Virus record (IMG/VR): IMGVR_UViG_3300031993_000006
Coordinates: 195,975-259,974 of that record
Reading direction: 5' to 3' (one strand)
Source of the DNA: a virus
Lineage: Duplodnaviria; Caudoviricetes
DNA length: 64,000 nt
In this document: piece by piece, positions 29,220-63,097 of the stretch
How the letters are laid out: every line of letters starts with the position of its first letter
Numbering within the stretch: the first letter of the stretch is position 1
Notes under the pieces: generated by a model
What the model was told of the DNA's origin: nothing
The model's input: only the letters and a program-made list of their open reading frames with translations
Databases searched by the model: none
Made by a program: the position numbers and the translations under genes

Positions 29220-29226
29220 ATCTAGT

Positions 29227-37118: not shown

Positions 37119-37303
37119 AATAGCCTCCTAGCTCTGTTTGATGTATTCCCTGATATTCATTTCGGCATCCTGTCTTGCCTTACCTGTTATTCCCCGGGAG
37201 CGGACTCCCGTGGCGCCCCATGGGGAAACCCCGTGGGCTACACGGGGAAATCGTGGGTCAATCCGTTTTTGCGCGGGGCTACCTACCGTTGTATTTGCGG
37301 CGG

Positions 37304-37699
37304 TTAGAAGCAGGGGTCTAGGTATTCCTCCGCCTTGCCCAAGAACCACTCGGAACTTTCAAGTTTCCTGGTGAGGCGGGTTTCCCACTTTTTGTCCCCA
37401 AGAAACACGTCCTCCGCCTTGCGGGACCGCCAGCGCCCGCCTCGGAAGACGAGGTACTTGACTTTGCCGTCGGGGTCGGAGGTGTATTTGTAGGACTGCG
37501 ATTCGGATATGCCGTTGCGGTCGGTCCTCTCGGCCTTCAACGCGCGGATTTTGCAGTGGGTCTTGTCCTGAACCTCGATGACCTCGTATGCGTGTCGGTC
37601 GCTCCAAAGGAGTTCGGTGACCCCCATGCCAACCTTCGGCTCGGGCATCTTGGCCGCGGCCATTAGCCTGTTTTGAATACATCCGTATATCTTGCCCAT
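37304..37699 (-). CDS. Conserved-looking hypothetical phage protein
   Basis: PKVGMGVT..LWSDRHAY...EYLDPCF pattern. Confidence 0.75.
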   Translation of the reverse strand: MGKIYGCIQNRLMAAAKMPEPKVGMGVTELLWSDRHAYEVIEVQDKTHCKIRALKAERTDRNGISESQSYKYTSDPDGKVKYLVFRGGRWRSRKAEDVFLGDKKWETRLTRKLESSEWFLGKAEEYLDPCF

Positions 37700-37872
37700 G
37701 GTTACACCCCCGGCTAGTCGTAGTTGTCGTGTTCGACGATGGCCCTGTGGCCGAAGCTCTTGCTGAATGCAGTAATTTTCATTCTAGGCCTCCTTGCCTC
37801 TTGAGTTTCTTTCCTGTTTCCATATAGTCCCAAAGGAGCCGCCCGTGGCGCCCCATGGGGAAACCCCGTGGG

Positions 37873-38490
37873 CTATACGCCGATGGCCTTTGCGATTTCT
37901 TCCGTGGTCATCCCCTTGAGCTTTTCGTCTACCCGTTCCTTGAGGGTGGGGGCGAGCTTGGGCTTGTAGTTCCTAAAGTGTTCCTTGAGCAATTCGCCCT
38001 GTTCCTTTTTCTTTGCGGATTCTTCTTCGCGTTCGGCGATGTGGCTAAATACGCGTTCTAGCTTTGTCTCGCAGAGTTCACTGATGAATGCAGCGGCTTC
38101 TTCGGGGGTCCAAAAGTCCTTGCAATGGCGCTTGAGGATTCCGTCATAGTAGGATTCGCCCGATTCTTGTGCGGCGCGACCGTTTACCGTGCATGTCGAA
38201 TAGTCGATTTTGTGGATTCTGAAATATATCATTCCACCGTTAAAATTGTCGTCGATTTCCAAGATGGAATCTTCCTTTGGCCATTTCTCCTTGACAATCT
38301 CGAGGATTGCTTCACGGGAAATCTCGGTGAACCTGTGAATGTCCCGCCTGATGGGTTCAATAATAACGCCGTATGAGTCCACGGGAAACCAATTCCCGTC
38401 GATGCAGACCGCCGGGAAAATACAAGTTTCGCAACCGTTGCGGACACAGATTCCGCGCTTGCCTGTCGATGGTGCGTATTCTGTAGCCAT
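37873..38490 (-). CDS. Hypothetical protein
   Basis: GGAGG RBS. Confidence 0.7.
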   Translation of the reverse strand: MATEYAPSTGKRGICVRNGCETCIFPAVCIDGNWFPVDSYGVIIEPIRRDIHRFTEISREAILEIVKEKWPKEDSILEIDDNFNGGMIYFRIHKIDYSTCTVNGRAAQESGESYYDGILKRHCKDFWTPEEAAAFISELCETKLERVFSHIAEREEESAKKKEQGELLKEHFRNYKPKLAPTLKERVDEKLKGMTTEEIAKAIGV

Positions 38491-38508
38491 AGTCGCCTCC
38501 GTAAAAAA

Positions 38509-39024
38509 TTATTTACCGTTTTCCCTGTGGGGCAACGGATAGAAGTTGAAGTGGGCCAAGAGGGTTTCGCGCAGGGTGCCGAGGTCTTCCGGGTACATAC
38601 GCACATGGCTGGGTCCACCCTCCCTTACGAGGTTCTTGCCCACGCACAGGTTAATCTCCGGGTCGTTGTCCACCCCGTCGATGCTGAACTCGATTTCGTT
38701 ATCGGGAGACGCTTGGATTCCGAGGTCGTCGAAGTCCTTGATTGCCAAGCCGGGGGCATACACGATGTCGCACGAGGCGAACCAAGTGTCGCCTTGCACC
38801 CCGAAGCGGGCGTTGCCTACATAGGCTTCCGGTAGGATGATACCGATAAGGTTCTCGAAGAGGGTGCTGACGCTGACGGTCTTTCCGTCGATGCTGATGT
38901 CGTATTTGCGGTCGCCGTCCTTGAGCCAGCTACATTCATTGGCCGCACGACGGATGATGTCGCGGTAGGCGGTTCCGATTGCGGTACCCGGTGTCTTGCT
39001 GAATGCGGTAATAGATTCGTTCAT
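38509..39024 (-). CDS. Hypothetical protein
   Basis: AAGGAGG RBS after repeat. Confidence 0.7.
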   Translation of the reverse strand: MNESITAFSKTPGTAIGTAYRDIIRRAANECSWLKDGDRKYDISIDGKTVSVSTLFENLIGIILPEAYVGNARFGVQGDTWFASCDIVYAPGLAIKDFDDLGIQASPDNEIEFSIDGVDNDPEINLCVGKNLVREGGPSHVRMYPEDLGTLRETLLAHFNFYPLPHRENGK

Positions 39025-39109
39025 TATAGGCCTCCTTGCCTGTTGATTTCCTTTCCACTCCCCGTATATCCCCGAAGGAGCCTCCCGTGGCTCCCCATGG
39101 GGCTACCCG

Positions 39110-39538
39110 CTAGAACGATATGCGCCTGATTCGCTCGAACGGGACAATCATCCGGCGGTACCCGTCCTTGAATGTCTTTCTCCCGTAGTAAGCCTGCTTC
39201 ATTTTCCCGTAATCGTCCGCGTACCACCCGGACAGCACGGGCTTGCTACCGTAACTGCACCCATTGTCCTGCTTGTAGACGCTGTTCTTGCTTACCACGA
39301 GGTACCCGTCGAACACATCTATCCTGTCGAGGTAGTCGCTAGGCTTCTTGCCCTCGCTCTTGATTACCTGACGGAGCGCGTTGTAGTCGTCGTTCTCGAA
39401 CAGGGCGCTCTCCCCGAGAACCACATCTAGGGTCTCAAGTCCGCATACCCCCGACTCCCCGTCGATGGCTATCGCGCACTTGCCGATTCCGTACTTCTTT
39501 ATCTGCTCCACCATGGAGACTACTGATGACTTCTTCAT
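39110..39538 (-). CDS. Hypothetical protein
   Basis: AAGGAG RBS. Confidence 0.7.
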   Translation of the reverse strand: MKKSSVVSMVEQIKKYGIGKCAIAIDGESGVCGLETLDVVLGESALFENDDYNALRQVIKSEGKKPSDYLDRIDVFDGYLVVSKNSVYKQDNGCSYGSKPVLSGWYADDYGKMKQAYYGRKTFKDGYRRMIVPFERIRRISF

Positions 39539-39592
39539 AGACGATTCTCCTTTAATTCCAAAATTAAAGATTCATAAATTTTATTCCCGAGC

Positions 39593-39865
39593 CTACATCG
39601 GCTTCAGGCTGAACTTCTCCGCGAACGCCCTGCCCTCGCGGACAACCTCGTACCGCTTCCGCTTGAAGGTGATGTACTGCGGCCCCTCGTCGCCCGACCG
39701 GTCGCCCTTCGTACGGCAAACCTTCGTGTCCACCCCGTCGGTAATCAAGAGGGAACCGTAGGGTATCGAGTGGATGTTCCCGAAGAACGGGTATGTCCAC
39801 GACTCTATCCCCGCCACGCGGACTTCTTTGGCGCCCGCCCCCTGTTCCCTATTCGTTGTAGCCAT
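39593..39865 (-). CDS. Hypothetical protein
   Basis: GGAGG RBS after repeat. Confidence 0.65.
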   Translation of the reverse strand: MATTNREQGAGAKEVRVAGIESWTYPFFGNIHSIPYGSLLITDGVDTKVCRTKGDRSGDEGPQYITFKRKRYEVVREGRAFAEKFSLKPM

Positions 39866-39961
39866 ATTCGGCCTCCCTGCATTAAGTGATTTTCCTTTCC
39901 TCTACCCATATACCCCCATAGGCTCTCCCCGTGGCTCCCCATGGGCTACCCGGGTAATATC

Positions 39962-40324
39962 CTAGTCCCTACCCGGGCGGTACGCGTAGAGCTTCTTCAC
40001 CTCCACGGGCTTGCTGTTCCCGCCGAACGCCCCCGCGTCCTCAAGGTCGTCCGCGAAGTCGCTCTCGTATCGCTCCACTAGCACCCGAACATCCTCCGGG
40101 TCGCACTTCCCCGTCCCCGCCCTAGTGATGTCCGGGTAGTACGCCTTTACCTCGTCGTAGTACTGCGTCTCACCGTCCTCCGTGAAAAGACCGCATATCC
40201 AGCTACGCTCCCTGTCCGCTGACCTCTCCCAAAACAAAATCGCGGGAAACCACTTCCTGGCGTACTTGTTGTATTCCTGACGGAGAACGTACACATTCTC
40301 CCAAGTCTTTACCTGCTTGTCCAT
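39962..40324 (-). CDS. Hypothetical protein
   Basis: AGGAGG RBS after repeat. Confidence 0.65.
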   Translation of the reverse strand: MDKQVKTWENVYVLRQEYNKYARKWFPAILFWERSADRERSWICGLFTEDGETQYYDEVKAYYPDITRAGTGKCDPEDVRVLVERYESDFADDLEDAGAFGGNSKPVEVKKLYAYRPGRD

Positions 40325-40419
40325 ATAAGCCTCCTGCGGCAATCAAAAATTTTCCTTTCCTATCCCCATATACCCCTATAGGCTCTCCCCGTGGCTCCCC
40401 ATGGGATTCCCGGGTAACC

Positions 40420-40527
40420 CTACCACGGCTTGAGCGTGAATGTAGGCTTGTATTGGTCGCGCTTGATTTTTATCTCGTAGCGCTTGCGCCTGAAAGTGAT
40501 GATGTGTAGGTATGCGCCTTTCTCCAT
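40420..40527 (-). CDS. 35-aa peptide, paralog of the C-terminus of 39593-39865
   Basis: IITFRRKRYEI...FTLKPW versus YITFKRKRYEV...FSLKPM. Confidence 0.55.
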   Translation of the reverse strand: MEKGAYLHIITFRRKRYEIKIKRDQYKPTFTLKPW

Positions 40528-40566
40528 AATGTTAGCCTCAACTAATAAATAAAATTTTCCTGTTTC

Positions 40567-41112
40567 CTAGTACACGATGCTCTTGATGTACTCCGCCGGA
40601 ATCGAGAGGTTGTGCATCAACCTGCTGTGGCTGACCCCAAACCCCGACTTCTCGATTTTGCGCTGATGTACCGCGCCTGAATCTTCCCGGTGGAAAGTCA
40701 CGATTTCGTTGGTACAGTTCTTCGGGCGCATTTCCTCGTCGGGAACTTCAAGGTAGCCGTTCTTCTTATTGTTCAGGTTGATAATGTTTGAATGAAAGTA
40801 GTCCACGGCAAGGTGACGGAGCGTGAATGTCACTATCCCGCTCGCCTCGTCCGCATGGTAGCTGTCGAGGTAGTCCTCCAGCTTCTCGGGCGGGTCCAGC
40901 ATGGCGAGGGATTCCTTGAGGTCGTCCGTCTCGCGCTTCCCGCACGGGTAACCCGTGAGGTACAGGTCGATTTCCTCCACGTTGGATGTCCGGTCGTCGC
41001 CCCCGCCCGCCGAGAATACCTTGCCGGGGACGATGTAGCTAACCCTAGCCACCCCCGAACCCCTCGAACTCCTCGCGAAGTTAATCGCGGATTCTATAGC
41101 CTTTATGTCCAT
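40567..41112 (-). CDS. Hypothetical protein
   Basis: GGAGG RBS before MDIKAIE. Confidence 0.7.
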   Translation of the reverse strand: MDIKAIESAINFARSSRGSGVARVSYIVPGKVFSAGGGDDRTSNVEEIDLYLTGYPCGKRETDDLKESLAMLDPPEKLEDYLDSYHADEASGIVTFTLRHLAVDYFHSNIINLNNKKNGYLEVPDEEMRPKNCTNEIVTFHREDSGAVHQRKIEKSGFGVSHSRLMHNLSIPAEYIKSIVY

Positions 41113-41199
41113 GTATGCCTCCCAGCAAATAAAAGTTTTACCTGTTTCCTCCAACCATATACCCACATAGCGTCCACCCGTAGCCCCCCATGGTCTACC

Positions 41200-41970
41200 C
41201 GGGTAACTCCATAGGGCAAACAGGGGAGATACTTCAGACTGATATACGGGAGCTACACGGGGGAACCCATCGGGCGAATACATAGGGAACCCATAGGAGA
41301 AACCATAGGGAACCCATAGGAGCCAATAGGGAGAAAACAAAAAATAAAAAATAAAAATCCCCCATAGCCACGGAATCCACAGAAACGGCCACGGGAGCCA
41401 TCGCAGATACGGACCCTCCCCTCTATACCCTAGAACCACCGCAGGGGCTACGCGCCCCGTTTCCCGGCTCCCTGCAAGGGGTACTCCCCCGAAGGTACCC
41501 CACCCCGTCCACGAACACCCCCTCGCACGGGCGAACACGGGGTGCCACGGGGGAGGACCTACGGGGTACTATGGGGCCACCTGTGCGGATGTGCAGGGGG
41601 TCTGCCCGGATGTGCAGTGGGGCTAACTCGGGGGTTAGGGGGGTTAAACCCGTGTTCAACGACAGGTTCATCCCGCGCTTCCCCAAAAGCTCAACCCGAG
41701 TTAGCTCCGTCTAACAACCCGTGTGTCCCCCAAGTGTCCCCCAAGTGTCCCCCAAGTGGCTCCCGACCGCCGAGGGGAATTAGCCGGGGCTAAGTGGGTG
41801 AACAGGTGTGCAGTACGGAGGGGCTACTGAGGAGAACCGGACGGGGCCACGCATGGCGCCCCATGGAGCTACCCGGTGGGGAACATATAGGAACCGTGGG
41901 ACAGCCGGATGCGTTTTTGGAACAGGGACTTTGAAAAATAAAAAATAACCCCTGGCCGGGGAGGGCAGGG
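41200..41970. other. Non-coding region with short tandem repeats; candidate replication origin
   Basis: CATAGG-type repeats 41281-41336, A-tracts, (GTGTCCCCCAA)x3 at 41723-41758, C-rich to G-rich switch near 41530. Confidence 0.5.
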
Positions 41971-41976
41971 GCGCTA

Positions 41977-42264
41977 CCGTTAGCTGAAACCTACTTAAAT
42001 CTACCAAGAGATAGACCTATGTGATTTCCTACCTTGCTCATTGCGGAGTAGGCTGTAACGGTACTTAATCAACCGTATCTACGCGATATACCTAATATGC
42101 ATCAAGCGACACGGCTAATTTACCTAATCCTACTTCCTTGCGGAAGAGCCTTAACACGGTCGGCATATCAAACTAGGCATTTTTAAATATACGTTATTTC
42201 CATTAGCAGATTTAAGTATATTTAGTTAAATTTTGTTAACATTTTTGTTAACTGCTATCAACCC
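41977..42264 (-). mobile_element. ORF-less IS607-like miniature element with structured RNA, copy 2
   Basis: Reverse-complement homolog of 2825-3122. Confidence 0.7.
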
Positions 42265-42299
42265 CGCGATGGGAGCGGGGAGCAGGTAGGAGGCAAATT

Positions 42300-42527
42300 C
42301 TATTCGTCTTCCTCGGGGTCTAAGTCTACGGACTCCACGGTGTCCAAGGAGTCGATTCCGTAATACGAGGCGGTGTCGCGGTCGTTCTTGAGGATGACGG
42401 TATCGTTGTCCGTGATGCCCTCGTTTTCGAGCTTCGCCTTGAGCTTGCCCCAGGAGATACCCGAGACATCCGCCGGGCTGTACCCGTTGGACCCCATGTT
42501 GATGATGAATGCGGTCTTTCTTGCCAT
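42300..42527 (-). CDS. Hypothetical protein
   Basis: AAGGAG RBS. Confidence 0.65.
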   Translation of the reverse strand: MARKTAFIINMGSNGYSPADVSGISWGKLKAKLENEGITDNDTVILKNDRDTASYYGIDSLDTVESVDLDPEEDE

Positions 42528-42538
42528 AGTGATACTCC

Positions 42539-42745
42539 TTACTTGCCGTTGTCGTGGTCCGGCGCGAGGACGGTGAGAGTTACAGATACGAGACCTGTCG
42601 GGTGTTCCCTGAGTACGGATTCGAGCGCGTCACGGAAGCCGTTGGAGTTGAAAGTGGTCATCGTGCCTTTCTGCGGGACGAAAGCCTTGGTGGATTCATC
42701 GTATGCGAATGTGGTGTATTCGGACTTGAATTGCTGTGTTGCCAT
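42539..42745 (-). CDS. Hypothetical protein
   Basis: GAGGA RBS. Confidence 0.6.
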   Translation of the reverse strand: MATQQFKSEYTTFAYDESTKAFVPQKGTMTTFNSNGFRDALESVLREHPTGLVSVTLTVLAPDHDNGK

Positions 42746-42824
42746 AATGATTGTTCCTCTAGGTGAAAATTGAAAAATAAAACCTGGGAATCCCCTGTAG
42801 AGGACCCCGGGGTGATAATGGGGG

Positions 42825-43505
42825 TTAGGTATTGTCAGCCCCGAGGTTGTCCGCGAAAGACTGTGCGGAGAATGCCTCGGCTACGCGACCGATTGGGTTG
42901 TTGAGGGGACGGCCCTCGTTCTTGCGGGCCTCGATGGATGCCGCGATGGCGGTGTACGCATCGGAGAACGACTTTTCGGCCGGGAGGTCATAGGCGTGTA
43001 CGGGCTTTCCGTCGGGACCCTGCTCGTAGATTTTCGGGATGAACGCGTCCGGGTAGACTTCGTTGTCGAGTTCTACGGAGTCCTTTTCGAGGAACTCGTC
43101 GAGCTTCTTGCAGGTATCCTTTACGGACTGGCCTGCATTTTCGATGGTTTCCTTGAGGTCGGAGATTTCGTCGGCCTGCGATTGGAGCTTGGTCTTGGCG
43201 TCTTCGAGTTCGGATTCGAGGTCTTCGCACTTGTCCTTGAGTTCGTCATAGGCGGAATCGTCACGGGTAGCGCTAGGGGTTACCTGTGGTGTCACCCGTG
43301 GGGTGGCGGTAGGGAACCCGATGCCCGAGACTGCGCGACGGAGGTAGTCTCCTGCGAAGAAGAGGATAAGTAATCCCGTGACCACGACTTCGACGATGGC
43401 GGTCGCCGTGGCCTTGCCGAGGGCGATGAGGACGATGTTCGCGAGGAATGTGAGTACTACACCGATTGCAACGACGTAGATGAGTTTTTTGGCGATAGAG
43501 GTCAT
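42825..43505 (-). CDS. Membrane protein (2 TM) with coiled coil
   Basis: AAGGAG RBS before MTSIAKK. Confidence 0.7.
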   Translation of the reverse strand: MTSIAKKLIYVVAIGVVLTFLANIVLIALGKATATAIVEVVVTGLLILFFAGDYLRRAVSGIGFPTATPRVTPQVTPSATRDDSAYDELKDKCEDLESELEDAKTKLQSQADEISDLKETIENAGQSVKDTCKKLDEFLEKDSVELDNEVYPDAFIPKIYEQGPDGKPVHAYDLPAEKSFSDAYTAIAASIEARKNEGRPLNNPIGRVAEAFSAQSFADNLGADNT

Positions 43506-43618
43506 ATTGTTGTCTCCTTTATGATTGATTAAAGATTTTTTGTTGTAGCCCCCGAGGGGCAAGACGGGTATGCCCCCGAGGTATCTCCGCGTGGCTCCCC
43601 ATGGGGAACCGGGGTGGG

Positions 43619-44059
43619 TTACTTGATGAAGTCGGCGATTGCCTTGAAAGTGGCTTCGCAGAAGTCGCCGGAGATGTCGTCGCCCGTGACGGTGTTCACC
43701 ACGGTAACCCTTGGGTTCTCGCCGGGGAGGATTTCCATCTTGAGCTGGAAGTCGGTGCAGGCCCCCTTGTACTTCCTGTCCTTGATGGACTTGACGGTGT
43801 AGATGTGGAACCACCCGATGAACGCCTCGGACTGCGAGGATTCGGGTTCGTCCATCTTGAACGACTCGGCGGGGTCTACGGTGAACTTTCCTTCAGAGTA
43901 GAACATGAGGCACGATTTGAGTGCCTGACGGCAGGACAGTGCGAACTTATTGTAGGTCGGGATGAAGTGCGCGATGGCGGCCCCGAGGTCGCTTACCGCT
44001 TTGGGGGAGAATCCCTTGTTTTCGGATTCGGTGGTCTTGGTTTCAGTTTCGTTTGCCAT
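43619..44059 (-). CDS. Hypothetical protein
   Basis: AAGGAG RBS after repeat. Confidence 0.7.
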   Translation of the reverse strand: MANETETKTTESENKGFSPKAVSDLGAAIAHFIPTYNKFALSCRQALKSCLMFYSEGKFTVDPAESFKMDEPESSQSEAFIGWFHIYTVKSIKDRKYKGACTDFQLKMEILPGENPRVTVVNTVTGDDISGDFCEATFKAIADFIK

Positions 44060-44161
44060 AATGAGTTAGCTCCTTTAAGTTTCAGGTTAGGCGCCCCGAG
44101 GGGCATCCGTGGTATATCCCGGGTGGCTCCTCCCGTGGCGCCCCATGGGTAACCCGGGTGG

Positions 44162-44392
44162 TCATCTGTTGACATAGGCGGGGTTCCACGGGTCGGGAAG
44201 TTCGGCCTTGTGTTCGCGCTCGCAGTCGGAACATACATAGACGTGGGCGACGGAGCGGTAGGTCGGTTTTCTACAGAACTTGCAGAGGTGGCGAGTCCCT
44301 GCGGTCTCGGACTTGCGGTGGTAGCCGGGGTCTCCGTAGCAGGTGTCGATTTTGGCGGGCGGGTTGGTGTTGGTTGGCCATATTGCAGACAT
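44162..44392 (-). CDS. Small Zn-finger protein
   Basis: CKFC...CSDC; AAGGAG RBS. Confidence 0.6.
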   Translation of the reverse strand: MSAIWPTNTNPPAKIDTCYGDPGYHRKSETAGTRHLCKFCRKPTYRSVAHVYVCSDCEREHKAELPDPWNPAYVNR

Positions 44393-44461
44393 ATCTTCTC
44401 CTTCGGGCGCATCCGGGGAGTACCCGGGTGTAGGCCACATGTCAAATATAGCGAAAGCTGG

Positions 44462-44635
44462 CTACTTGAATGTCTTTTTGGCCAAGTGGGGCTTCCCGTC
44501 GGGTCCGATTTCGGGCCAGATGACCTGTTTGCCCTTGGTGACGAAGTGGGAGAAGATGTCCTTTTGGCCCAGTCCCTTTTCCTTTACTAGAGTTTCTTGG
44601 ATGAAGTTGTTGGCCTGTTCGGTGTATTCTGCCAT
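44462..44635 (-). CDS. Hypothetical protein (57 aa)
   Basis: Manual translation MAEYTEQANNF...; AAGGAGG RBS. Confidence 0.55.
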   Translation of the reverse strand: MAEYTEQANNFIQETLVKEKGLGQKDIFSHFVTKGKQVIWPEIGPDGKPHLAKKTFK

Positions 44636-44646
44636 GTGGGGCCTCC

Positions 44647-45273: not shown

Positions 45274-45454
45274 AGGTCTAGCTCCTGTTTCGCCCCGGGT
45301 ATCTCCCGGGTGGACCCGCCCGTAGCCCCTCATGGAGCTACCCGGTGGGAGATATAGCGACCGGTCGGGAGCAGGCGGACGCCGGGGCGAACAAGAAACC
45401 CCCCGGGGGCTAACCCGGGGGCAAGGAGGCCAACTGTTATGACGCAGATTGAAA

Positions 45455-45763: not shown

Positions 45764-45800
45764 ATCTAGATTCCTTTTTTGATTCAAATATAGCAAAAGT

Positions 45801-54216: not shown

Positions 54217-54243
54217 AGTGTTACTCCTTTAAAAAAATAAAAA

Positions 54244-55496: not shown

Positions 55497-56768
55497 TTAC
55501 TTCTTTTCGAGCTTGTCACCGCAAAGGGGGCAATTCGGGAAGACCATCGTGCCTACATAGGATTTGCCCTGTGCGTAGCACTCTACCTTGTTGTCGTGGA
55601 GGTCGCAACGCTGTAGGTACATATCGTTGGCAGAGTCGAATTTGCAGGGTTTTCCCTGCTTGCAGAACGGGCAGAAGATGTCGTCGAAGATGTCGTCCAC
55701 TTCATCGGAAAAATTGGTATCCTCGTGATTATTCCTCCACTTTTCGAGGGCTTGTGATGTTCCGTAGGTGTAGAAATAGTAGCCCACTACTTCTTTCGGG
55801 GAGGCGGTCTCGGCGAACTCCAAACGCCAATCCTTTCCTGCTTCTGTGTGGGCGATGATTTCGTCTGCTTTCCTGTGGAACAAGTCGATGTAGGTGTTCG
55901 CCTTGATGCTCACCGAGATGTCGGGTAATTCCGCCGGGGCTTCCTCGGGTTCCGCTTCAGGTTCTTCCTTTGGAGCTTCCTTGGGAGCTTCATTATTAAA
56001 AAAATTTTTGACGATTACGCTCTTGAGGTCGTGAATGTCATCAATCTTTACACGGATTTCTGAGTCGAGCGGGGAGACTTCAATAGTTTGACTTCCATTT
56101 GCATCGGCAATGAGGAAAAGAGTCCAATGCCTGTATCGGTAGTCAAAATGTGTACTATGGCGGGAAAAGGTGCTGCAAGTACAGAACGCATGGACGAAAT
56201 TCGCCTGCTCGCGGGAAATCCCGAGTGCTTCCGTGAGGACCTGCTCAACTTTCAAGTCGTGGCTATGAATTGAAATATTATTCAGGACATTACTGATAAT
56301 GTCCCTGTGGAACGGCGTATCTACTATCGTGTAGACTCCCGAGGGCAACTCTTCCTTGTTTTCATTAAAGGCATCACGGAGAACTTCCCCGAGGTGGAAT
56401 ACCACTGAGTCCTTGCTTTTCAGGTTAAGCTGTCTAAGGTACACGGAAAGGGCTTTACGGGCGATGCTGCGCTCGGTGGGACTCGATTCTCCGCCTGCGT
56501 CGAGGAGAAGCTCGATTCGGGTGCAGTCCATATTGATGAGGACAGCCATATCAATAAAGACCTTATTTTCATCTTGAAAGCTAAGCTTCTCTACACAAAG
56601 GTCGTTGAATACGAACTTGAGAATGTTGTGCCTTTCAAGATTGAGGATTCCATCGGGCAGGGTATCCACATCGGGGACGAAATTGTTGTCCACAAGATAG
56701 TCCACGCAGGAGTACCAGTCGGGGTGGTTCTTGATTAGTGTGCAGTCGATTAAGATATGCTTTGCCAT
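55497..56768 (-). CDS. Hypothetical protein with C-terminal Zn-ribbon
   Basis: CPFC...CPLCG; AAGGAG RBS after repeat. Confidence 0.75.
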   Translation of the reverse strand: MAKHILIDCTLIKNHPDWYSCVDYLVDNNFVPDVDTLPDGILNLERHNILKFVFNDLCVEKLSFQDENKVFIDMAVLINMDCTRIELLLDAGGESSPTERSIARKALSVYLRQLNLKSKDSVVFHLGEVLRDAFNENKEELPSGVYTIVDTPFHRDIISNVLNNISIHSHDLKVEQVLTEALGISREQANFVHAFCTCSTFSRHSTHFDYRYRHWTLFLIADANGSQTIEVSPLDSEIRVKIDDIHDLKSVIVKNFFNNEAPKEAPKEEPEAEPEEAPAELPDISVSIKANTYIDLFHRKADEIIAHTEAGKDWRLEFAETASPKEVVGYYFYTYGTSQALEKWRNNHEDTNFSDEVDDIFDDIFCPFCKQGKPCKFDSANDMYLQRCDLHDNKVECYAQGKSYVGTMVFPNCPLCGDKLEKK

Positions 56769-56975
56769 AGATTTATGCTCCTTTGGGCTTCATTGCCCAT
56801 TACCTATATGTACCCGATTAGCTCCCCCGTGGCTCCCCATGAGGCTCCGGGTGGGTGCCATAGAAAGACCGGCGGAGGAGTCTGAAGCAGCAGGCTGCCC
56901 GCCGGTGGGCAATAAAACGGAGAAGCCCCACGGTGTTACCCGTGGAGCCTCTAGGTAGGACACAAAAATTAAAAA

Positions 56976-57776
56976 TTAATCTTGGTTAATTGCGATTTCC
57001 TCTACGACATGCTTGCCCTCTTCGGTCTTGTAGCCGTAGAAGTCCACATAGAACAGCGTAGTCCAATGGGAATCCCCGTCATCGTCCCGTTCTTCCCTAG
57101 AGACCGCGACCACGAGGTTTTCCGCATTGGGGTCTTCCGAGTTCTTGCGAATATCTTCCGTGCCGTTTTCCGAGAGTTCAGGCGAGCTTACCACGAGATT
57201 GTCGGAACAGTACATCTTTCGGGCTACCTTTTGAACTTCGAGCTGAATGTCCCTCAAGTCCAACTTGATTGCCGAGTTGTCTTCCGTGGAAAGCGTCTCC
57301 AATGCGCTACGGAGTTCCTGACGGGCTTCTTCGAGGTTCCTCGGGATATACCCGTTGTCCCCGTTCGCAAAGACATTGTTGTCCACCACGGGAACGAGCA
57401 TATAGACATTCGGTACGGCATCGTCAGGCTTGATTTCCACCACGTCCGCATTTCCATCTTCGAGGCGCTTGAACAGAAGCTCGATGTCCTCCTGATGGGG
57501 GTTCTCGTCCGTGATGACGAACGATACGCACTCGTTGTTGTCCCTAGTGTGGCTAGTCACCTTGATGGCAAGTGCATCATCAAGGTTCACGATGCAGTCG
57601 TTGATAGTACCCTTGAGTTCCGAAACGACATTCTTTCGGGGCATCGGGGAGTGTACTAGGTTGTCCACTCCTTTGACTTCTACCATTCCAACACGGACAT
57701 CGACATTAAGCCCGTAGCCGATTGCAATGTACATTTCGTCAGGGTTGAGATTCTTTTGATTCTTTTCTTCTGCCAT
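56976..57776 (-). CDS. Hypothetical acidic protein
   Basis: AAGGAG RBS after repeat. Confidence 0.75.
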   Translation of the reverse strand: MAEEKNQKNLNPDEMYIAIGYGLNVDVRVGMVEVKGVDNLVHSPMPRKNVVSELKGTINDCIVNLDDALAIKVTSHTRDNNECVSFVITDENPHQEDIELLFKRLEDGNADVVEIKPDDAVPNVYMLVPVVDNNVFANGDNGYIPRNLEEARQELRSALETLSTEDNSAIKLDLRDIQLEVQKVARKMYCSDNLVVSSPELSENGTEDIRKNSEDPNAENLVVAVSREERDDDGDSHWTTLFYVDFYGYKTEEGKHVVEEIAINQD

Positions 57777-57868
57777 AGATTACTCCTTTGGGCTTCTTTG
57801 CCCAAATACCGTATAGCCCCACGGGGAACGCCCGTGGCGCCCCATGAGGAACCGGGTAGAATACCCCG

Positions 57869-58375
57869 CTATTCGGCGACCTTTACGGCGTCTTCGAAGG
57901 ATACCACGAGTTTAAGACCGAACTCTTCGGCTTTCTTTGCCATTTCGTTCCAAAACGGATGGAACTTTTCGAGATTCGAGACCTTTACCGTGTGGTAGCC
58001 GTTCTCGTCCAACGCTACATCGTCCCAAGTGTCCATAAATTCGGCGGGTCCGTCATCGAAGATTTCTCCCTCTTCGATGTAGCCTACGGACACTCTGTCG
58101 ATGTCCTCACGCTCGTCCCCCTCCCTGATGTACTTATACGGGAGTTCGGTGTTTTCGTTTTCGCTAGTGAGCGCCTGCATAATGTTCTTTGCCACGCCTT
58201 CGGAATTTTCGTCCCAAGTATGCCGAATGGCTTCAAAGAAGTATGTATCGCCCGTGGGTGAAACCTTGATGGCGTCAAAGGGTTGAACGTCCTTTGCGGT
58301 AGTATTGAGGACTTTAAAAATTTTCTCGGCAATCCCCTTGCAAGCGAGAATGTAGACGTTGCTTCGGTATGACAT
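57869..58375 (-). CDS. Hypothetical phage protein (MxYRSxV N-terminus)
   Basis: MSYRSNVYI...YIREGDE..D. Confidence 0.7.
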   Translation of the reverse strand: MSYRSNVYILACKGIAEKIFKVLNTTAKDVQPFDAIKVSPTGDTYFFEAIRHTWDENSEGVAKNIMQALTSENENTELPYKYIREGDEREDIDRVSVGYIEEGEIFDDGPAEFMDTWDDVALDENGYHTVKVSNLEKFHPFWNEMAKKAEEFGLKLVVSFEDAVKVAE

Positions 58376-58395
58376 AGGTTAAGCTCCTTTAAAAA

Positions 58396-58797
58396 TTAAA
58401 ATTTCACCCGTTGGGATTGGCACTTGCCGAACAGCTCAAGCGCATCGCACAGCTCCTCCTCGGTAGCTCCATCGGCTTCTCCGATGCGGTTCATGAACGA
58501 CCCGTTGGAGGTTACACACTCGTAGAGGTTGGCGTGGTAGTAAGGGTCTGCGTTCAGGGGGAGGCACCAAGAGAGCCTGACGTTCTGCCCGTCCGTAGTG
58601 GTGAAGCGGGCGATAAGGTCGATTCCGCCCTCGGGGTCTACCTGAAGCATCACGGACTCGTCGCCCTCGAAGTCGCAGTAGTCGTACGGCTTGTGGTGCG
58701 TACAGCCCGGAAAGAGGGTGTCGATGGTGGAAATGAAAGTGTCACGCACCTCCTGCAAGTGGGCGAGGTGGCGGTTGATTCTTGAGATATATGCCAT
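58396..58797 (-). CDS. Hypothetical protein
   Basis: AGGAG RBS after repeat. Confidence 0.7.
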   Translation of the reverse strand: MAYISRINRHLAHLQEVRDTFISTIDTLFPGCTHHKPYDYCDFEGDESVMLQVDPEGGIDLIARFTTTDGQNVRLSWCLPLNADPYYHANLYECVTSNGSFMNRIGEADGATEEELCDALELFGKCQSQRVKF

Positions 58798-58987
58798 AGG
58801 TTGCTCCTGCGGGGGTTAATGAGGTGTTCCCGCACAGGCGGTATATCCCCCTCGGAGCTCCCCGTGGCTCCTCATGGGAAACCGGGTGGGCGCCATAGGG
58901 TGTTCTGGGGGTTCCAGTCCCCACCGGGGAAACAGGAAGCCCCACCGTGGTTACCGGCGGGGCTACAGGAGGGAGCAATTAAATTTT

Positions 58988-59350
58988 TTAGAGGTAGGGC
59001 GCCTGCAACTCCTCGATGTTGCCGAACGGGAGGAACGATACACTACGACCGCTCACGCCCGTCTTGACGGATACTTCACGCTCGCCATCTGCGAGCCTTT
59101 CAACATATCTGTCGTCCGTGGAAGTACCCTCGATGGAGAGGTAATGGTGTTCATTAAGGGCAACCGCAATGAACTTCCCGTCATCTTCCTCGTGGCAAAC
59201 CCAATTACCGCCCTGAATGGAGTCGAAAGTTCTCGGCATAATCTGTACGCCCTTGCTGTCTGCCTGGCGGAGCATATCGTCACAAGAGATTTCCCCTGCG
59301 AAAGCACTTACCGCCAATGCGACAATCAAAATAATTTTATTCATCTTCAA
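58988..59350 (-). CDS. Hypothetical secreted protein
   Basis: Signal peptide NKIILIVALAVSAFA. Confidence 0.7.
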   Translation of the reverse strand: MKMNKIILIVALAVSAFAGEISCDDMLRQADSKGVQIMPRTFDSIQGGNWVCHEEDDGKFIAVALNEHHYLSIEGTSTDDRYVERLADGEREVSVKTGVSGRSVSFLPFGNIEELQAPYL

Positions 59351-59613
59351 TCCTTTTGAAATGTAAATAAAAGTTTATCCTAAAATGACCGACCAAAGAT
59401 AACAAAAATTTTCTTTATTGTCAATCCCTTGGGCTATTTTCTTGCCCATTACCTATATAACCCCGATTAGCTCCCCCGTAGCCCCCCATGAGAATCCCGG
59501 TAGCTCCCGTAGTTGTCGCTGGGGAATCCCGGGGACAGCAGTCCTCCTCCCGGGGAAAAGGAAAACGGACGACCCTTGCGAGCCGCCCGTTCAGGAGCAA
59601 TTAAAAAATATTT

Positions 59614-60261
59614 CTAGATAGCCGTGTAGTTGAACTGGTTAGCCCCGTCAGCGAAGCCCACGAGAATCCACTCGTCACTCTTGCCGACCATAAGACCGAA
59701 CATATCGTCTGCGTTCTCGACATTGAAGAAAATTTTCTCGTCATCGGCACCTACTCCGAGACCCATCTTCATAGTGACATTCTCAAGGCGGTCCTCGTCA
59801 CGCCACAGAATCACGGCATTGAATCGGGTTTCGGGCTGAATCTTCTTAATCTGCTCGGCAAGTTCCTTAAACTTGATGGTCTTTGCCTCGTAGTCATTGA
59901 AATCGACAAGGATATGACCCTCCCCGCTTCTCGGGTCAGTCAGCCTGCAAAGGTGGTGACCGGAGCAGAAGAAGTCCACTTCGTCATCTTCGGTTCCCTC
60001 TTCGTAGCCGTCATCGAACTTGATTTTGATGTCATAGCTTGTGCCATCGGGTTCCATTACCGTGCAAGAGCTGTACAGGTCATCGGGGTCGCTTTCGAGG
60101 CGCTTGTCGATTTCCTTGCCGAGCGTTTCCAAGTCCTGATTGACGAGGTAATCCTTATAGGAAAAGATGAAGAAGCGTTTGGACTCAATGACAATTCCGT
60201 TGATGTCATGAATCATCTGCTTGATGGTATCAAATTTTTTGAGAGCTTTCTTGGTTTCCAT
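59614..60261 (-). CDS. Hypothetical protein
   Basis: ORF after repeat; terminator at ~59564. Confidence 0.7.
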   Translation of the reverse strand: METKKALKKFDTIKQMIHDINGIVIESKRFFIFSYKDYLVNQDLETLGKEIDKRLESDPDDLYSSCTVMEPDGTSYDIKIKFDDGYEEGTEDDEVDFFCSGHHLCRLTDPRSGEGHILVDFNDYEAKTIKFKELAEQIKKIQPETRFNAVILWRDEDRLENVTMKMGLGVGADDEKIFFNVENADDMFGLMVGKSDEWILVGFADGANQFNYTAI

Positions 60262-60462
60262 AGTAACTGCCTTATTATTTGCGGAGGGCAACATCGCCCG
60301 CCTATACCAATATAGCCCCCTCGTAGCTCCCCGTGGCTCCCCATGAGCTACCGGGTGACTCCCATAGGGTTACTGTGGGCTGCCCGGCGGAGGCTCGCCG
60401 AATCCCGGAAAATAAAAACGGGCGACTCGTGCGAGCCACCCGTTCAGGGAGCAATTAAAAAA

Positions 60463-60813
60463 TTATCTTTCTAACCCCAAGAGCTTTGCCGTCTCGTGGC
60501 GCTTTTCTTCGATTACCCCCGCCCACCAATCAGGGACATCGGTAACCTTGCTGTCCCCGTTTGCATATACGGCGGTTACTTCTATTCCGAGAGGAGCCGA
60601 GGCGAGGAAATCTTCGGTATCTTCAGACTTGCGCTTGCGACCAAGCTCGTCGAAGTCCTTGAAGTCCACTTCAGCGGGGACTACATCGACCGCTCCCGCA
60701 TCGCTACCCGTGTTCACCACGAGCTTGCAACCCGCCTGTGCGAGAAGCTTCTTTCCGAACTCGAACGACTCCCGTGCGAGCTTGATGATTTCATATCTTT
60801 CCTTTGGACTCAT
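60463..60813 (-). CDS. Hypothetical protein
   Basis: ATGA coupling with upstream ORF. Confidence 0.65.
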   Translation of the reverse strand: MSPKERYEIIKLARESFEFGKKLLAQAGCKLVVNTGSDAGAVDVVPAEVDFKDFDELGRKRKSEDTEDFLASAPLGIEVTAVYANGDSKVTDVPDWWAGVIEEKRHETAKLLGLER

Positions 60814-60995
60814 ATTGTGCCTACCTTTTTTAATCTTTCGGTTAATGGACGGAGCAACGCCTCGACTTCGGGCGAACGGCTGTCCCCGAACGACATCGCA
60901 CGGGCTTGCTTGAATACTTCTCTCGAAGCGAGACCACGGGTCTGCCGTAACCTCTTCTGTTCAGCCATAATCTGTTCAATCGTTCTAGGTGCCAT
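60810..60995 (-). CDS. Hypothetical protein
   Basis: AAGGAG RBS after repeat. Confidence 0.6.
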   Translation of the reverse strand: MAPRTIEQIMAEQKRLRQTRGLASREVFKQARAMSFGDSRSPEVEALLRPLTERLKKVGTI

Positions 60996-61152
60996 ATTAT
61001 GCTCCTTTCGGGCGACCACCGCCCGCATATACCTTATAGCCCCGAAGTGCCTCCCCGTAGCCCCCCATGAGCTACCGGGTGACTCCCCGTGGGGAACCTT
61101 CCGGGGAATCCCGCACGGGTCTGCCCGCACGGGAAATTAAATAAAAAATTTT

Positions 61153-61563
61153 TTATGGAAGCTGTAACAGGAACGCCTTTGGCTCCGTCTGCTCCACCGA
61201 GTCGATGAGGTAGTCGATGAGCGCCTTGACGGTATCCTCCATCGTCAGCACCCCCGTAGACCGGTCGATAAGCCCCGTGGTAGCCAATGCGTTGCCGCCG
61301 GGGTATCCGCCTGCGATGATATGGGCGTCTGCCGTATTGAACTGCTGTGCGAGGTCAATTAGCTTATAGCGCCCGCAGCTCTCGTTGAAAGCCTGCTCTT
61401 TCAGCTCGTCCGTATCAAGGTAGAACCATTCATCTTCGCTAGGAATCCCGTCCGTGGCGAAACGGATGTCACCCACGGGCGAGCCGTAATGAACCCGAGT
61501 GAAGATATAGGTGGCGATTTCACAAGCTAGGCTCGTAACATTGTCGAATCGAAAGTATCTCAT
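61153..61563 (-). CDS. Hypothetical protein
   Basis: AAGGAG RBS after repeat. Confidence 0.7.
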   Translation of the reverse strand: MRYFRFDNVTSLACEIATYIFTRVHYGSPVGDIRFATDGIPSEDEWFYLDTDELKEQAFNESCGRYKLIDLAQQFNTADAHIIAGGYPGGNALATTGLIDRSTGVLTMEDTVKALIDYLIDSVEQTEPKAFLLQLP

Positions 61564-61719
61564 AGAATTGCTCCTTTAATACCCGTATAGCCCCATAGGA
61601 GCCTCCCGTGGCTCCCCATGAGTATCCGGGTGAGTTGTACCCCGGGGCTACCCGGGAATCGAAAAATAAAAAATAAAAGGGCGACCCCACGGGCGAACCC
61701 GTGGAATCCCCTGAATGTT

Positions 61720-62337
61720 CTAGAAGAGGTAGAAGTTAACCTTTCTTACATAGCCCTTTGTTTCGAGAAGATGCTTGTGAACATCTCGGTCGAAGCTGTC
61801 CTGCTCCTGCGGGTCGGAGTGACCATTGTTACGCCAATAGCGCAAGCCCTTTTCGGTAAGGATATAGAAAGAATAATAATCCGTGCCATCGTGGTGATAA
61901 TTCTTTGCGTGTAGACCATCTTTGTCGATAAAAATTTTTACCTTGTCGATATGGTTGGCGAACGGGTAAGTGAGCGTATCACGACCCTTGAACTCTACTA
62001 CACGACCGCCCTCCTGCTGTCCACGCCACCCCCCGAAGAAGCCGTGGATAAGCACCATCTTGCCGAAGATGGGGCTATATGGGAGGTTGACCGAGAGGTC
62101 ATCGGCATCGGTTTCGTTCATATCGTGGATAGTATTCCAATATTCTTTGGATTTTTCCACAAGCGGTTCAACGGGTTCCTCATCGCACTCGTGTTGCGCT
62201 TCGTAGTATTCCTTGACATCATCAAATGATGGAATATCCACATCGTTGTAGTATTGGACTTCTTTCTTTCCGTCCTTGTCTGCCGTGATATTGCTCCACT
62301 TGATGCGGGTCTCTTCGGGTTTCTTCTGTTCAGCCAT
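61720..62337 (-). CDS. Hypothetical phage protein
   Basis: GGWRG...HHDGTDYY motif; AAGGAG RBS. Confidence 0.72.
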   Translation of the reverse strand: MAEQKKPEETRIKWSNITADKDGKKEVQYYNDVDIPSFDDVKEYYEAQHECDEEPVEPLVEKSKEYWNTIHDMNETDADDLSVNLPYSPIFGKMVLIHGFFGGWRGQQEGGRVVEFKGRDTLTYPFANHIDKVKIFIDKDGLHAKNYHHDGTDYYSFYILTEKGLRYWRNNGHSDPQEQDSFDRDVHKHLLETKGYVRKVNFYLF

Positions 62338-62534
62338 AAATTGCTCCTTTGGGAATTAAAAATTTTTCCCCGATACCCGTATAGCCCCAAGGTGCCTCCC
62401 CGTGGCTCCCCATGACAATCCGGGTGACTCGCCCTCCCCGATGCTGTCCCCGGGAGTCCCCGGGCTGCCGCGGAGGGTACAAAAAATCCCCCCGCGGGTT
62501 ACACGGGAGGACTCTAGGTAGGTCATTAAAATTT

Positions 62535-62915
62535 TTACCACGGGTGCGATGCGTCATAGGTGGCGAAGCGGTGCTCCCACAGATTCAGCTCGTCATTGTT
62601 GAGATGCTTACCGCCCTTGCAATCGGGAGGGTAGACGAACAGCGTTACGCCACGCCCGTAGATTTCACAGACATATTTGTAGTGACCGCAAATCTGATAG
62701 CCGTTGGGAACATCGGGGAGCGCCTTGCGGACTTCGTAGGTGGTTCCGTTGAACGGCAATCCACGGGTATCTATTACCTCGTATCCTAGCCCTTGAAGAT
62801 GCTTCTCAAGCGCTTCCCAATTAAAAGGCTTTGCGCCCGTTCCGTTCTGTTCCCAATCTGTAAATTCTTCTAGTAACTTTTTGAAGTGTTCGGGATATTT
62901 CTTTTGTTTATCCAT
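62535..62915 (-). CDS. Hypothetical protein
   Basis: AAGGAG RBS after repeat. Confidence 0.7.
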   Translation of the reverse strand: MDKQKKYPEHFKKLLEEFTDWEQNGTGAKPFNWEALEKHLQGLGYEVIDTRGLPFNGTTYEVRKALPDVPNGYQICGHYKYVCEIYGRGVTLFVYPPDCKGGKHLNNDELNLWEHRFATYDASHPW

Positions 62916-63097
62916 AAATTGCTCCTTTGGGAATTAAAAATTTTTCCCAATCCCCGTATAACCCCGATGGGCTCCCCCGTGGCTCCCCATGAGCTACTAG
63001 GTGACCACTCGGGGCTACCTGTGGGGACAGCGGGCAAAAAACAGGAAAGGCGCCCGCATTTGCGAGCGCCCCATTGCGGAGTTCCTCAATGATTACA

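Follow-up and report, generated by a model that had tools for sequence, protein, structure and literature searches.

Gene exchange at a recurring putative promoter module in an uncultured T4-like phage

Why should one ~55-nt element, a putative promoter signal, stand ahead of some forty small genes of a single phage, and why should neighboring copies share private variants? The sequence analyzed here (the window) is a stretch of 64,000 nucleotides from an uncultured, 260-kb, T4-like phage, whose polB is 27% identical to T4-like cyanophage gp43 and whose genome encodes a gp25 baseplate domain. From its sequence it appears to be a distant T4-like jumbo phage. An earlier note on this DNA had proposed that genes are gained, lost or reordered as element-bounded modules, in an integron- or PeSL-like manner.

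The element and the intergenic module around it

We found 37 full copies of the element between positions 26903 and 63500 of the window, all in a single orientation (Table 1). Its core, CCCGTRGCNCCCCATG, was matched 41 times in the window when up to 2 mismatches were allowed, against 0.26 matches expected from shuffles. The remaining 196 kb of the phage genome contain zero copies, and 5 extra copies lie beyond the window end on a 100%-identical contig; the density is at least 42 copies per ~40 kb in one orientation. In IMG/VR the element was not found, except for single chance hits. The genes that carry it are on the minus strand; the genes of the array are small and nearly all without a Pfam match. 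On the minus strand the consensus reads cACCCGG-N3-CyCATGGGGnGCCACGGGnGG-N8-GGGGnTATAy. The blocks CATGGGG, GCCACGGG, GGGG and TATA are invariant across 126 distinct instances of the element, and the 58-nt core, with its invariant blocks, has a mean identity of 62% between copies. The possibility that the element is a MITE or an IS was rejected, since all copies share one orientation and a fixed register to genes, and since the genuine IS elements of the array (TnpB, and an IS1595 with 27-nt TIRs) look different.

The order on the gene strand is stop codon, putative terminator (in many copies), element, 5'UTR (frequently a hairpin), Shine-Dalgarno (SD) sequence and ATG, with 57-80 nt between the CATG anchor and the start codon in most copies. 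The earlier note had placed upstream stop codons close to the element edge, and ORFs do end there: in 15 of 36 copies the stop is at the distal element edge, 8-24 nt ahead of the CATG anchor. In most of the remaining copies the distance upstream is 80-135 nt, and a terminator-like hairpin usually occupies the gap. Conservation spans ~100 bp, from the upstream stop codon through the SD or start of the next gene, and the intergenic modules of non-orthologous genes align over 150-200 nt with 72-80% identity. The best ten terminator-like hairpins of the 44-64 kb region are all on the gene strand, each placed after a stop codon and before the element that follows it; because of their position, transcription must presumably restart at the element. 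We propose that the element would be the promoter part of a composite intergenic module, with GGGGnTATAy as a -10-like box, and that over 40 transcription units, with 1-3 small ORFan genes apiece, would each begin with such a module. A sigma70 consensus scan placed no sigma70 promoter on any element: GCCACG occupies the -35 position, the upstream region is GC-rich, and the -10-like TATAy is the sole sigma70-like feature.

The element might instead act in RNA, as a processing site, an attenuator or a terminator of read-through. Strong hairpins fold in some copies (50681, -30.7 kcal/mol, z -3.2; 37207, z -2.65), and in the 27-53 kb half of the array the element abuts the upstream stop without a separate terminator, as such a role would allow. 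However, folding of 12 copies gave a mean z of about -1.0, marginally more stable than shuffles, no base-pair covariation for a conserved fold was found among the 126 instances, no U run lies 3' of the element, and in the other half separate hairpins of canonical terminator type lie upstream. A TATA box at constant spacing is among the best-conserved letters, and the element has its GCTATA core in common with a second, genome-wide, gene-proximal promoter-like motif, TTGCTATATTTG. These results make a role at the RNA level very unlikely.

Table 1. Features of the element array and of its variable genes, in window coordinates
Feature	Coordinates	Strand	Remarks
Hyperplastic region: element-headed array of small genes, mostly ORFans	26883..64000	-	runs past window end
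Element copy	26883..26940	-	last along transcription direction
Element copy	28630..28687	-	
Element copy	30797..30854	-	TnpB gene downstream
Element copy	33157..33214	-	
Element copy	33678..33735	-	
Element copy	34377..34434	-	
Element copy	36008..36065	-	
Element copy 37207	37187..37244	-	paired with 37842
Element copy 37842	37822..37879	-	UTR and first codons common with 39084 (89 nt, 82%); downstream ORF apparently frameshifted
Element copy 39084	39064..39121	-	
Element copy	39908..39965	-	homology island between unrelated cassettes, strains L238/L239
Element copy	40368..40425	-	homology island between unrelated cassettes, strains L238/L239
Element copy	41157..41214	-	
Element copy	41830..41887	-	degenerate, no TATA box
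Element copy	43568..43625	-	
Element copy	44112..44169	-	
Element copy	45299..45356	-	
Element copy	47360..47417	-	right boundary (-13), cassette replacement vs L235
Element copy	47833..47890	-	
Element copy	48461..48518	-	left boundary (+29), cassette replacement vs L235
Element copy	49217..49274	-	
Element copy	50341..50398	-	
Element copy 50681	50661..50718	-	its gene (203 aa in relatives) deleted in this genome
Element copy 52192	52172..52229	-	downstream direct-repeat member, 83-aa cassette
Element copy 52555	52535..52592	-	upstream direct-repeat member, 83-aa cassette
Element copy	53629..53686	-	
Element copy	55177..55234	-	
Element copy	56806..56863	-	
Element copy	57811..57868	-	orthologue doubled around 87-aa gene in L223-225, L227
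Element copy	58841..58898	-	four-allele slot, right border
Element copy	59455..59512	-	four-allele slot, left border
Element copy	60310..60367	-	
Element copy	61034..61091	-	metagenome contig L128 stops here
Element copy	61585..61642	-	
Element copy 62399	62379..62436	-	UTR common with 62976
Element copy 62976	62956..63013	-	UTR common with 62399
Element copy	63480..63537	-	
Terminator-like hairpin with T run	56921..56952	-	between stop codon and element
Similar terminator-like hairpins	63047-63072, 61683-61708, 60416-60445, 59563-59592, 58938-58964		
Similar terminator-like hairpins	55295-55318, 50767-50789, 50442-50467, 45400-45421		
TTGCTATATTTG motif	44443..44454	-	precedes mid-operon gene
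Further TTGCTATATTTG motifs in array	29275-29286, 35412-35423, 45785-45796		
83-aa cassette gene	52260..52511	-	GC 41.7%; absent from L228/L231, single element there
118-aa cassette gene	58988..59344	-	one of four slot alleles; others: 524+310 aa, 377+112 aa, empty
126-aa cassette	39962..40342	-	L238-L240: methylase + GmrSD + 118 aa + 139 aa instead; breakpoints +48 and -13
90-aa + 142-aa cassette	39110..39865	-	L238/L239: four other genes instead; breakpoints +53 and -3
138-aa + 130-aa units	47413..48378	-	L233/L235: single 172-aa gene instead; breakpoints +29 and -13
126-aa gene	62535..62915	-	L227: 99-aa gene, ORF-for-ORF swap; breakpoints +83 and stop codon
122-aa gene	49304..49672	-	present here, absent in relatives; between stop codon and next element, without element of its own
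TnpB (OrfB_IS605 / Cas12f-like) gene	29274..30635	-	within array
Small serine recombinase ORF	635-1222	-	beside TnpB-like ORF, 26 kb from array

Likeness of neighboring copies

Adjacent copies had been described as each other's closest matches. We determined the best match of each copy and found it to be a positional neighbor in 16 of 36 cases, compared to a mean of 2.6 and a maximum of 11 in 5000 shuffled orders. Mean identity of adjacent pairs was 0.685, against 0.617 +/- 0.010 in shuffled order; similarity thus correlates with adjacency, and the signal lies chiefly in the distal arm and the UTR. The individual pairs singled out previously bore this out. Copies 37207 and 37842 have an identical stretch of 34 nt, 39928 and 40388 share about 55 nt with 3 mismatches, extending into the UTR, and the common UTR of 62399 and 62976 covers 51 nt at 94%. 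The pair 52192/52555 is alike over 65 nt at 88%, including the private variants CACATGG and GCAACCCGTGGGG.CATATC, and encloses one 83-aa gene of lower GC content than the region (41.7% vs 52.7%).

Such likeness could also result from tandem duplication of a gene plus its promoter followed by divergence, or from gene conversion alone, and not from cassette insertion. Several observations fit: similarity in the distal arm falls off regionally as rank distance grows (r = -0.45), informative sites at the 83-aa site are interleaved and do not separate cleanly into left and right, and the 37842 and 39084 copies have their UTR and first codons in common. However, no paralogy of neighboring genes was detectable by blastp or tblastn, and the most similar pair encloses the 83-aa gene, which is foreign in GC content and missing from two strains. 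This origin is therefore rather unlikely. We favor cassette insertion, by which neighbors with private variants would both descend from a single resident promoter that a gene insertion had split; gene conversion may also contribute to neighbor likeness and has perhaps homogenized neighboring copies.

Breakpoints and junctions among strains

To see how the array varies, about twenty strain-level contigs were compared and 32 events with 64 breakpoints were catalogued. Gene order and content differ between the related genomes, and many breaks of indels and replacements are within the element, where junctions show homology and single copies are chimeric. The cassette predicted at 52192-52555 is a real presence/absence polymorphism, the gene being absent in L228/L231. 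Gain, loss and replacement of genes as modules were thus borne out, whereas reordering, also part of the original proposal, was not seen among the strains.

In eight pure indels the variable segment has an element copy at either end, and the two copies form direct repeats, in register, that extend over 19-120 nt with 82-100% identity. One of these is the perfect 78-nt repeat that brackets the 87-aa gene in L223-225 and L227. For 6-7 of the eight, the allele with a single copy is chimeric: its left side corresponds to the upstream copy, its right side to the downstream copy, and a single switch, between -10 and +35, lies in the core. Both breaks lie inside the element in five cassette replacements, and at replacement sites the element is the only DNA conserved between the unrelated cassettes. 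Since the flanks are 92-99% identical, the indel alleles are not diverged orthologues. Logan contigs come from short k-mer assembly, which could in principle collapse repeats; the alleles that recur in independent JGI, ENA and Logan assemblies are those of the 87-aa site, three of the four at the four-allele slot, and the 126-aa replacement, while the empty slot in L227, the deletion in L229 and the losses in L128 are each seen in a single contig.

The element occupies 10% of the sequence and contains 28 of the 64 breakpoints, but if breakpoints are assumed to be confined to intergenic DNA, this share of 44% is roughly the fraction of intergenic space that the element takes up. In-register junction repeats and chimeric junctions, and not enrichment, therefore carry the case. 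Could the element be a bystander, a regulatory island amid illegitimate recombination and selection for indels between genes? Besides the breakpoint share, this would account for the 13 of 32 events outside the intergenic module (mid-operon small genes, ORF-internal deletions, TnpB and IS1595 insertions), whose ends lack the element and share just 3-12 nt of microhomology. It does not readily account for the pure indels, all eight of which end at the same position of two copies with long homology and chimeric products between nearly identical flanks; by our estimate, same-position element ends are expected for about 6% of random intergenic breaks per event. A bystander role is therefore decidedly unlikely.

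The same junctions bear on an integron-like, site-specific system, in which a dedicated recombinase would cut the element, as an attC-like site, at one set position. Co-oriented repeats bracketing single genes, and the partial palindromes that flank CATG, recall such a system. Junctions, however, occur anywhere between positions -115 and +100, counted from the anchor, with no single crossover point, each cassette has its own putative promoter, unlike integron cassettes, and the covariation and folding results above give no attC-type structure. No tyrosine recombinase (PF00589) was matched in the 260 kb, with positive controls in 14/14 genomes. The window, said earlier to lack an integrase, does encode a small serine recombinase, but this ORF lies far from the array and has a TnpB-like ORF beside it, so that it appears to belong to an IS607-type element. 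We consider an integron extremely improbable.

Taken together, these results indicate that the array is likely a promoter/terminator cassette system of the PeSL type, with homologous recombination as its driving force, so that the PeSL-like half of the original suggestion stands and the integron-like half does not. Because the same 60-200 nt recurs every ~1 kb in one orientation, the module would constitute portable homology. Homologous recombination between two copies would delete the intervening genes and leave one chimeric copy; the reverse exchange, or a double exchange in both flanking copies, would insert or replace a gene block, and the incoming block would arrive with, or land behind, a working promoter. 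The direction assigned to each event, insertion or deletion, is putative. The recombination machinery is here presumed, and the Pfam RecA model detected no RecA/UvsX-like gene.

Comparison with known systems

Integron attC sites and cassettes resemble the array in that single promoterless-sized genes lie between co-oriented, imperfectly palindromic repeats and in that cassette content differs between strains. They differ from it in having an integrase, a fixed crossover point and a conserved folded attC structure, whereas here each unit has its own putative promoter and exchange appears to proceed by homology.

T4 middle promoters consist of a Mot box and a -10 sequence and depend on MotA/AsiA. 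Similar signals are the promoter-middle stem-loops (PmSLs) of Vibrio phage nt-1 (PMC4122927). Like these, the element combines a -10-like box with a conserved upstream box replacing the -35, which suggests, by analogy, that a phage factor would assist in reading this putative promoter and would recognize its non-sigma70 upstream half. The boxes themselves are unrelated (TGCTT there, CATGGGGnGCCACGGG here), and no MotA C-terminal domain was detected in our phage. Beyond serving as passive homology, the element could be the recognition site of an undescribed, lineage-specific transcription system as well as the site of copy-choice "promoter capture" of genes, a combined reading that we hold to be quite doubtful. 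If the transcriptional part were true, a phage factor or phage polymerase would read a 55-nt GC-rich promoter with no -35 box. If promoter capture were true, new genes would land just past the ribosome-binding site, with a complete promoter and 5'UTR regenerated on both sides, and the perfect 78-nt and 65-nt repeats (about -14 to SD) would be its products and not those of simple reciprocal exchange.

The closest precedent is the gene shuffling mediated by promoter-early stem-loops (PeSLs) in the T4-type phages RB49/phi1, T4/PST and KVP40/nt-1 (Arbiol et al. 2010, PMC2839356; Comeau et al. 2014, PMC4122927). PeSLs are composite terminator/promoter intergenic modules of at least about 100 bp, from the upstream stop to the SD/ATG, as the module here is proposed to be, and both lie ahead of ORFans in hyperplastic regions of T4-like genomes. 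In both systems, indel and replacement breaks between close relatives fall in the module, a sister genome has one chimeric module where the other has a gene between two modules, and non-module events occur as well. The signals differ. PeSLs have a sigma70-like early promoter with a TTGACA-like -35, a 17-nt spacer (N17), a TATAAT-like -10 and an AT-rich upstream region. The element lacks a TTGACA-type -35 and an AT-rich upstream region; instead, 13 nt ahead of its GGGGnTATAy stands a CATGGGGnGCCACGGG box that is rich in GC and almost invariant. The putative terminator, interleaved in PeSLs, is here, if present, a separate hairpin upstream of the promoter. Copy density is also higher here, the phage is very remote, and the evidence comes from a population in which one slot can have as many as four alleles, compared to one isolate pair for PeSLs. 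A mechanism already known from T4-type phages would thus operate here on a very different signal, which, as far as its letters tell, is a non-sigma70, GC-rich, lineage-specific putative promoter motif.

A repeated promoter-like element in a gene array

The virus record in IMG/VR is 259,974 bp long, and the window is its final 64 kb. The family-B DNA polymerase (PolB) of the phage shares 27% identity with T4-like cyanophage gp43, and a gp25 baseplate domain is encoded as well; we therefore regard the phage as a remote, T4-like jumbo phage. Genes lie on the minus strand from 26.9 kb through the window end, and here the core CCCGTRGCNCCCCATG of the repeated element is concentrated, with 41 matches in the window against 0.26 expected. 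Full elements account for 37 of these matches, all in a single orientation, and no copy was found in the remaining 196 kb of the genome. A contig from a different sample, 100% identical to the window, extends 2.7 kb past its end and adds five copies, and a sister strain has the start of the array ~9.4 kb past the window end, so the whole array should hold roughly fifty copies. The two long assemblies of this genotype, 259,974 and 262,728 bp in length, terminate within the array (window 64000; contig L248:1-2676), unlike the sister-strain contigs, which read through it; assembly may have broken here at repeats or in variable DNA, or the genome may physically end at this point.

On the gene strand the element reads cACCCGG-N3-CyCATGGGGnGCCACGGGnGG-N8-GGGGnTATAy, and across all strains its 126 distinct instances have near-invariant blocks CATGGGG, GCCACGGG, GGGG and TATA. 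Mostly 57-80 nt past the CATG anchor comes a start codon with a Shine-Dalgarno (SD) site, and immediately after the TATA box the 5'UTR often forms a small hairpin. The earlier note had placed the preceding stop codon often at or near the element edge. This holds for one class of copies, with the stop 8-24 nt ahead of the anchor; in another it lies 80-135 nt ahead with a strong hairpin and a T run in between. Of the terminator-like sites in 44-64 kb, the ten best all lie between stop codon and element on the gene strand, and non-orthologous intergenic modules are 72-80% identical across 150-200 nt.

Position, orientation, the -10-like box and the upstream terminators suggest that the element is an array-specific promoter class of the phage. 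A consensus scan placed no sigma70-type promoter on the elements, no base-pair covariation was seen among the 126 instances, and folding was just marginally better than for shuffled sequence. Among possible readers of the putative promoter, searches gave no match to sigma70 region 2, RNAP beta or the MotA C-terminal domain, nor to T7-type RNAP (with a model that also lacked any positive-control match). In IMG/VR the motif gave single chance hits only, and judged by sequence it appears private to this phage lineage. A second motif, T-rich plus TTGCTATATTTG, has 36 gene-oriented copies genome-wide, 10-45 nt ahead of start codons; it is common to the IMG/VR relatives G001-G004, has the GCTATA core in common with the element, is promoter-like and is probably another temporal promoter class.

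Features of the window and of strain contigs (positions are in the window unless a contig, L, is named)
Feature	Position	Strand	Detail
CATGGGGnGCCACGGG box			part of the element
Second motif copies	1408, 7001, 9401, 9780, 13666, 16734, 19416, 20592	+
Second motif copies	29286, 35423, 44454, 45796	-	inside array, ahead of mid-operon genes
Pure indel with element repeats			524+310-aa unit
Pure indel with element repeats			377+112-aa unit
Pure indel with element repeats			87-aa gene; perfect 78-nt repeat, -14 to SD site
Pure indel with element repeats	between 52555 and 52192		83-aa gene of the window; missing in two strains, one element kept
Pure indel with element repeats			one-gene or four-gene unit lost in L229
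Pure indel with element repeats			SpoVG + 167-aa pair, lost in L128
Pure indel with element repeats			two small units
Non-module event			small genes inserted mid-operon
Non-module event	between 50681 and 50361		203-aa ORF deleted in this genome, hence element 50681 without a gene
Non-module event			1.4-kb deletion, UTR into ORF
Non-module event			TnpB insertion
Non-module event: IS1595-family transposon	L229:1515-5216; L226:~40-3700		27-nt terminal inverted repeats; cargo of EcoRI-like methylase and GmrSD/HNH-type nuclease
TnpB (OrfB_IS605/Cas12f-like) gene	29274-30635	-	within array
TnpB (OrfB_IS605/Cas12f-like) gene	L235:3826-5022		within array
Serine recombinase	635-1222	-	Resolvase domain, 75 bits
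TnpB-like ORF	3-632	-	directly adjoins serine recombinase
Gene after element 37842	37300-37790	-	begins with UTR and first codons of the 171-aa gene after 39084
12 clustered tRNA genes	1932-6966	+
tRNA nucleotidyltransferase gene	12103-13332
CRISPR-like array, related jumbo phage G004	L262:6800-7800 (IMGVR_UViG_3300028591_000075, 246.8-247.8 kb)		about 16 copies of 36-nt repeat GGTAGAGGTGCCACCGGTTTACATGGCGCCGATACC, period 65-66 nt

Gene content and breakpoints among strains

A megablast search of 10 kb against INPHARED phages gave no match, and a single array protein as query retrieved no relatives from IMG/VR. The closest long IMG/VR relatives, G001-G004, were chosen by PolB (72-82% identical in the close relatives). 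They contain neither the element nor a comparable high-copy repeat and, apart from one 96-aa match in G004, no array-gene homologues, and are therefore unusable for comparing breakpoints. Of 19 relatives, only one had the FtsK-like flank gene. A motif scan of metagenome contigs yielded two related fragments, and look-ups of their proteins led to about twenty contigs (JGI, ENA and Logan assemblies), whose gene content varies and whose shared parts match the window at 80-99% identity. Runs containing these strains are DRR855036/062/069/072/074/104, SRR9006654/55 and SRR9008933, together with those behind the ERZ272568xx/572xx assemblies. Comparison of the contigs gave 32 non-redundant events. 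Several alleles were found again in independent assemblies from different pipelines; a few are known from one contig, where assembly collapse at repeats may play a part.

Eight events are pure indels in whose long allele the element recurs as in-register direct repeats, 19-120 nt in length and 82-100% identical. In six or seven of them the single-copy allele is chimeric, its left part matching the upstream copy and its right part the downstream copy with one switch (-10 to +35), which is the expected product of homologous exchange between two element copies. Five replacements have both breakpoints within the element. In one of them, four other genes stand in place of the window's 126-aa gene (40342..39962); the breaks lie at +48 and -13, and the ~67-nt elements are the sole DNA conserved between the cassettes. 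Four alleles occur between elements 59475 and 58861: this genome has a 118-aa gene in the slot, two other alleles are units of 524+310 aa and 377+112 aa, and in the fourth the slot is empty. A further six events, of which five are replacements and one is a pure indel, have their breaks in other parts of the composite module, namely the terminator part or the SD site or start, and 13 of the 32 are unconnected with the module. These data bear out the earlier proposal that genes are gained and lost as element-bounded modules with indel breakpoints inside the element. The proposed reordering was not seen: no gene turned up in two different slots, and a same-gene search across slots returned only intergenic modules.

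The element, 10% of the sequence, contains 28 of the 64 breakpoints (p about 2e-12), a share near that expected if breaks were simply restricted to intergenic DNA. The in-register junction repeats and chimeric single copies are therefore the decisive points, and random intergenic breaks would rarely produce them.

Neighbouring copies and the mode of exchange

The four copy pairs singled out earlier (37207/37842, 39928/40388, 52192/52555 and 62399/62976) share sequence as described, and the gene enclosed by 52192/52555 is indeed low in GC (41.7% vs 52.7% regionally). Similarity tracks adjacency, as had been suggested: the best match is a positional neighbour for 16 of 36 copies, whereas 5000 shuffled orders gave 2.6 such copies on average and never more than 11. 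The signal lies mostly in the element's distal arm and the UTR, and sharing between neighbouring units is limited to promoter, UTR and sometimes first codons. Tandem gene duplication as the source of this likeness was rejected because neighbouring genes are not paralogous. The 83-aa locus has interleaved informative sites, so that gene conversion between close copies may contribute to the signal as well. Proteins from 24.8-45.4 kb, used as queries, retrieved contigs that are all 100% identical to the window, so the 37207/37842 pair offers no variation. The gene after element 37842 has a stop after 22 codons, reading resuming in another frame, and may carry a frameshift or recombination scar.

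Homologous recombination between module copies is the best account of these events: general recombination between copies of the repeated promoter/terminator module would shuffle the genes. The Pfam RecA model found no match in our recombinase search. A site-specific, integron-like system, also raised in the earlier note, is very unlikely, because no tyrosine recombinase was found in the genome, junction positions spread over about 200 nt, and the sole serine recombinase adjoins a TnpB-like ORF (an IS607-type arrangement) 26 kb from the array. The statement that no integrase is visible in the window thus stands for tyrosine recombinases, the serine enzyme having been overlooked.

At least six diverged TnpB copies occur in the genome, and a different one is inserted behind a 150-aa gene in three strains, the same site being empty in the window. 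The IS1595-family transposon sits in the array of two strains and adjoins a six-array-gene deletion in L229. We rejected the reading of methylase + GmrSD pairs at two positions as a moved cassette; they are distant alleles (30-60% amino acid identity), one being IS1595 cargo. Pfam and PADLOC scans gave no above-threshold match for the variable cassette proteins.

Comparison with the stem-loop modules of T4-type phages

In T4-type phages, promoter-early stem-loops (PeSLs) shuffle genes by homologous recombination between promoter/terminator modules (PMC2839356; PMC4122927); in the literature we found such modules described only for E. coli, Yersinia and Vibrio phages. The likeness to PeSLs drawn in the earlier note holds for position, length and breakpoints, whereas the element lacks a sigma70-like promoter, and the terminator, which only some of the copies have, is a separate hairpin upstream of the element. 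The closest likeness is to the promoter-middle stem-loop (PmSL) idea, a -10 box with an activator box. The strain contigs, among which one slot may be empty or contain one or two genes, amount to an unusually clean natural experiment; they could be used to measure how fast phage accessory regions gain and lose genes and which rules the junctions follow. The element, with its 126 distinct instances, is a well-defined handle on the factor driving early/accessory gene expression in this phage group. Taken together, our results extend the shuffling of promoter/terminator cassettes to an uncultured, deep-branching jumbo phage; earlier descriptions are confined to PeSLs of the sigma70 type in T4-like phages that infect Gram-negative hosts. 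Here the portable homology is an entirely different promoter signal, which argues that the mechanism needs any densely repeated regulatory module and no particular sequence.
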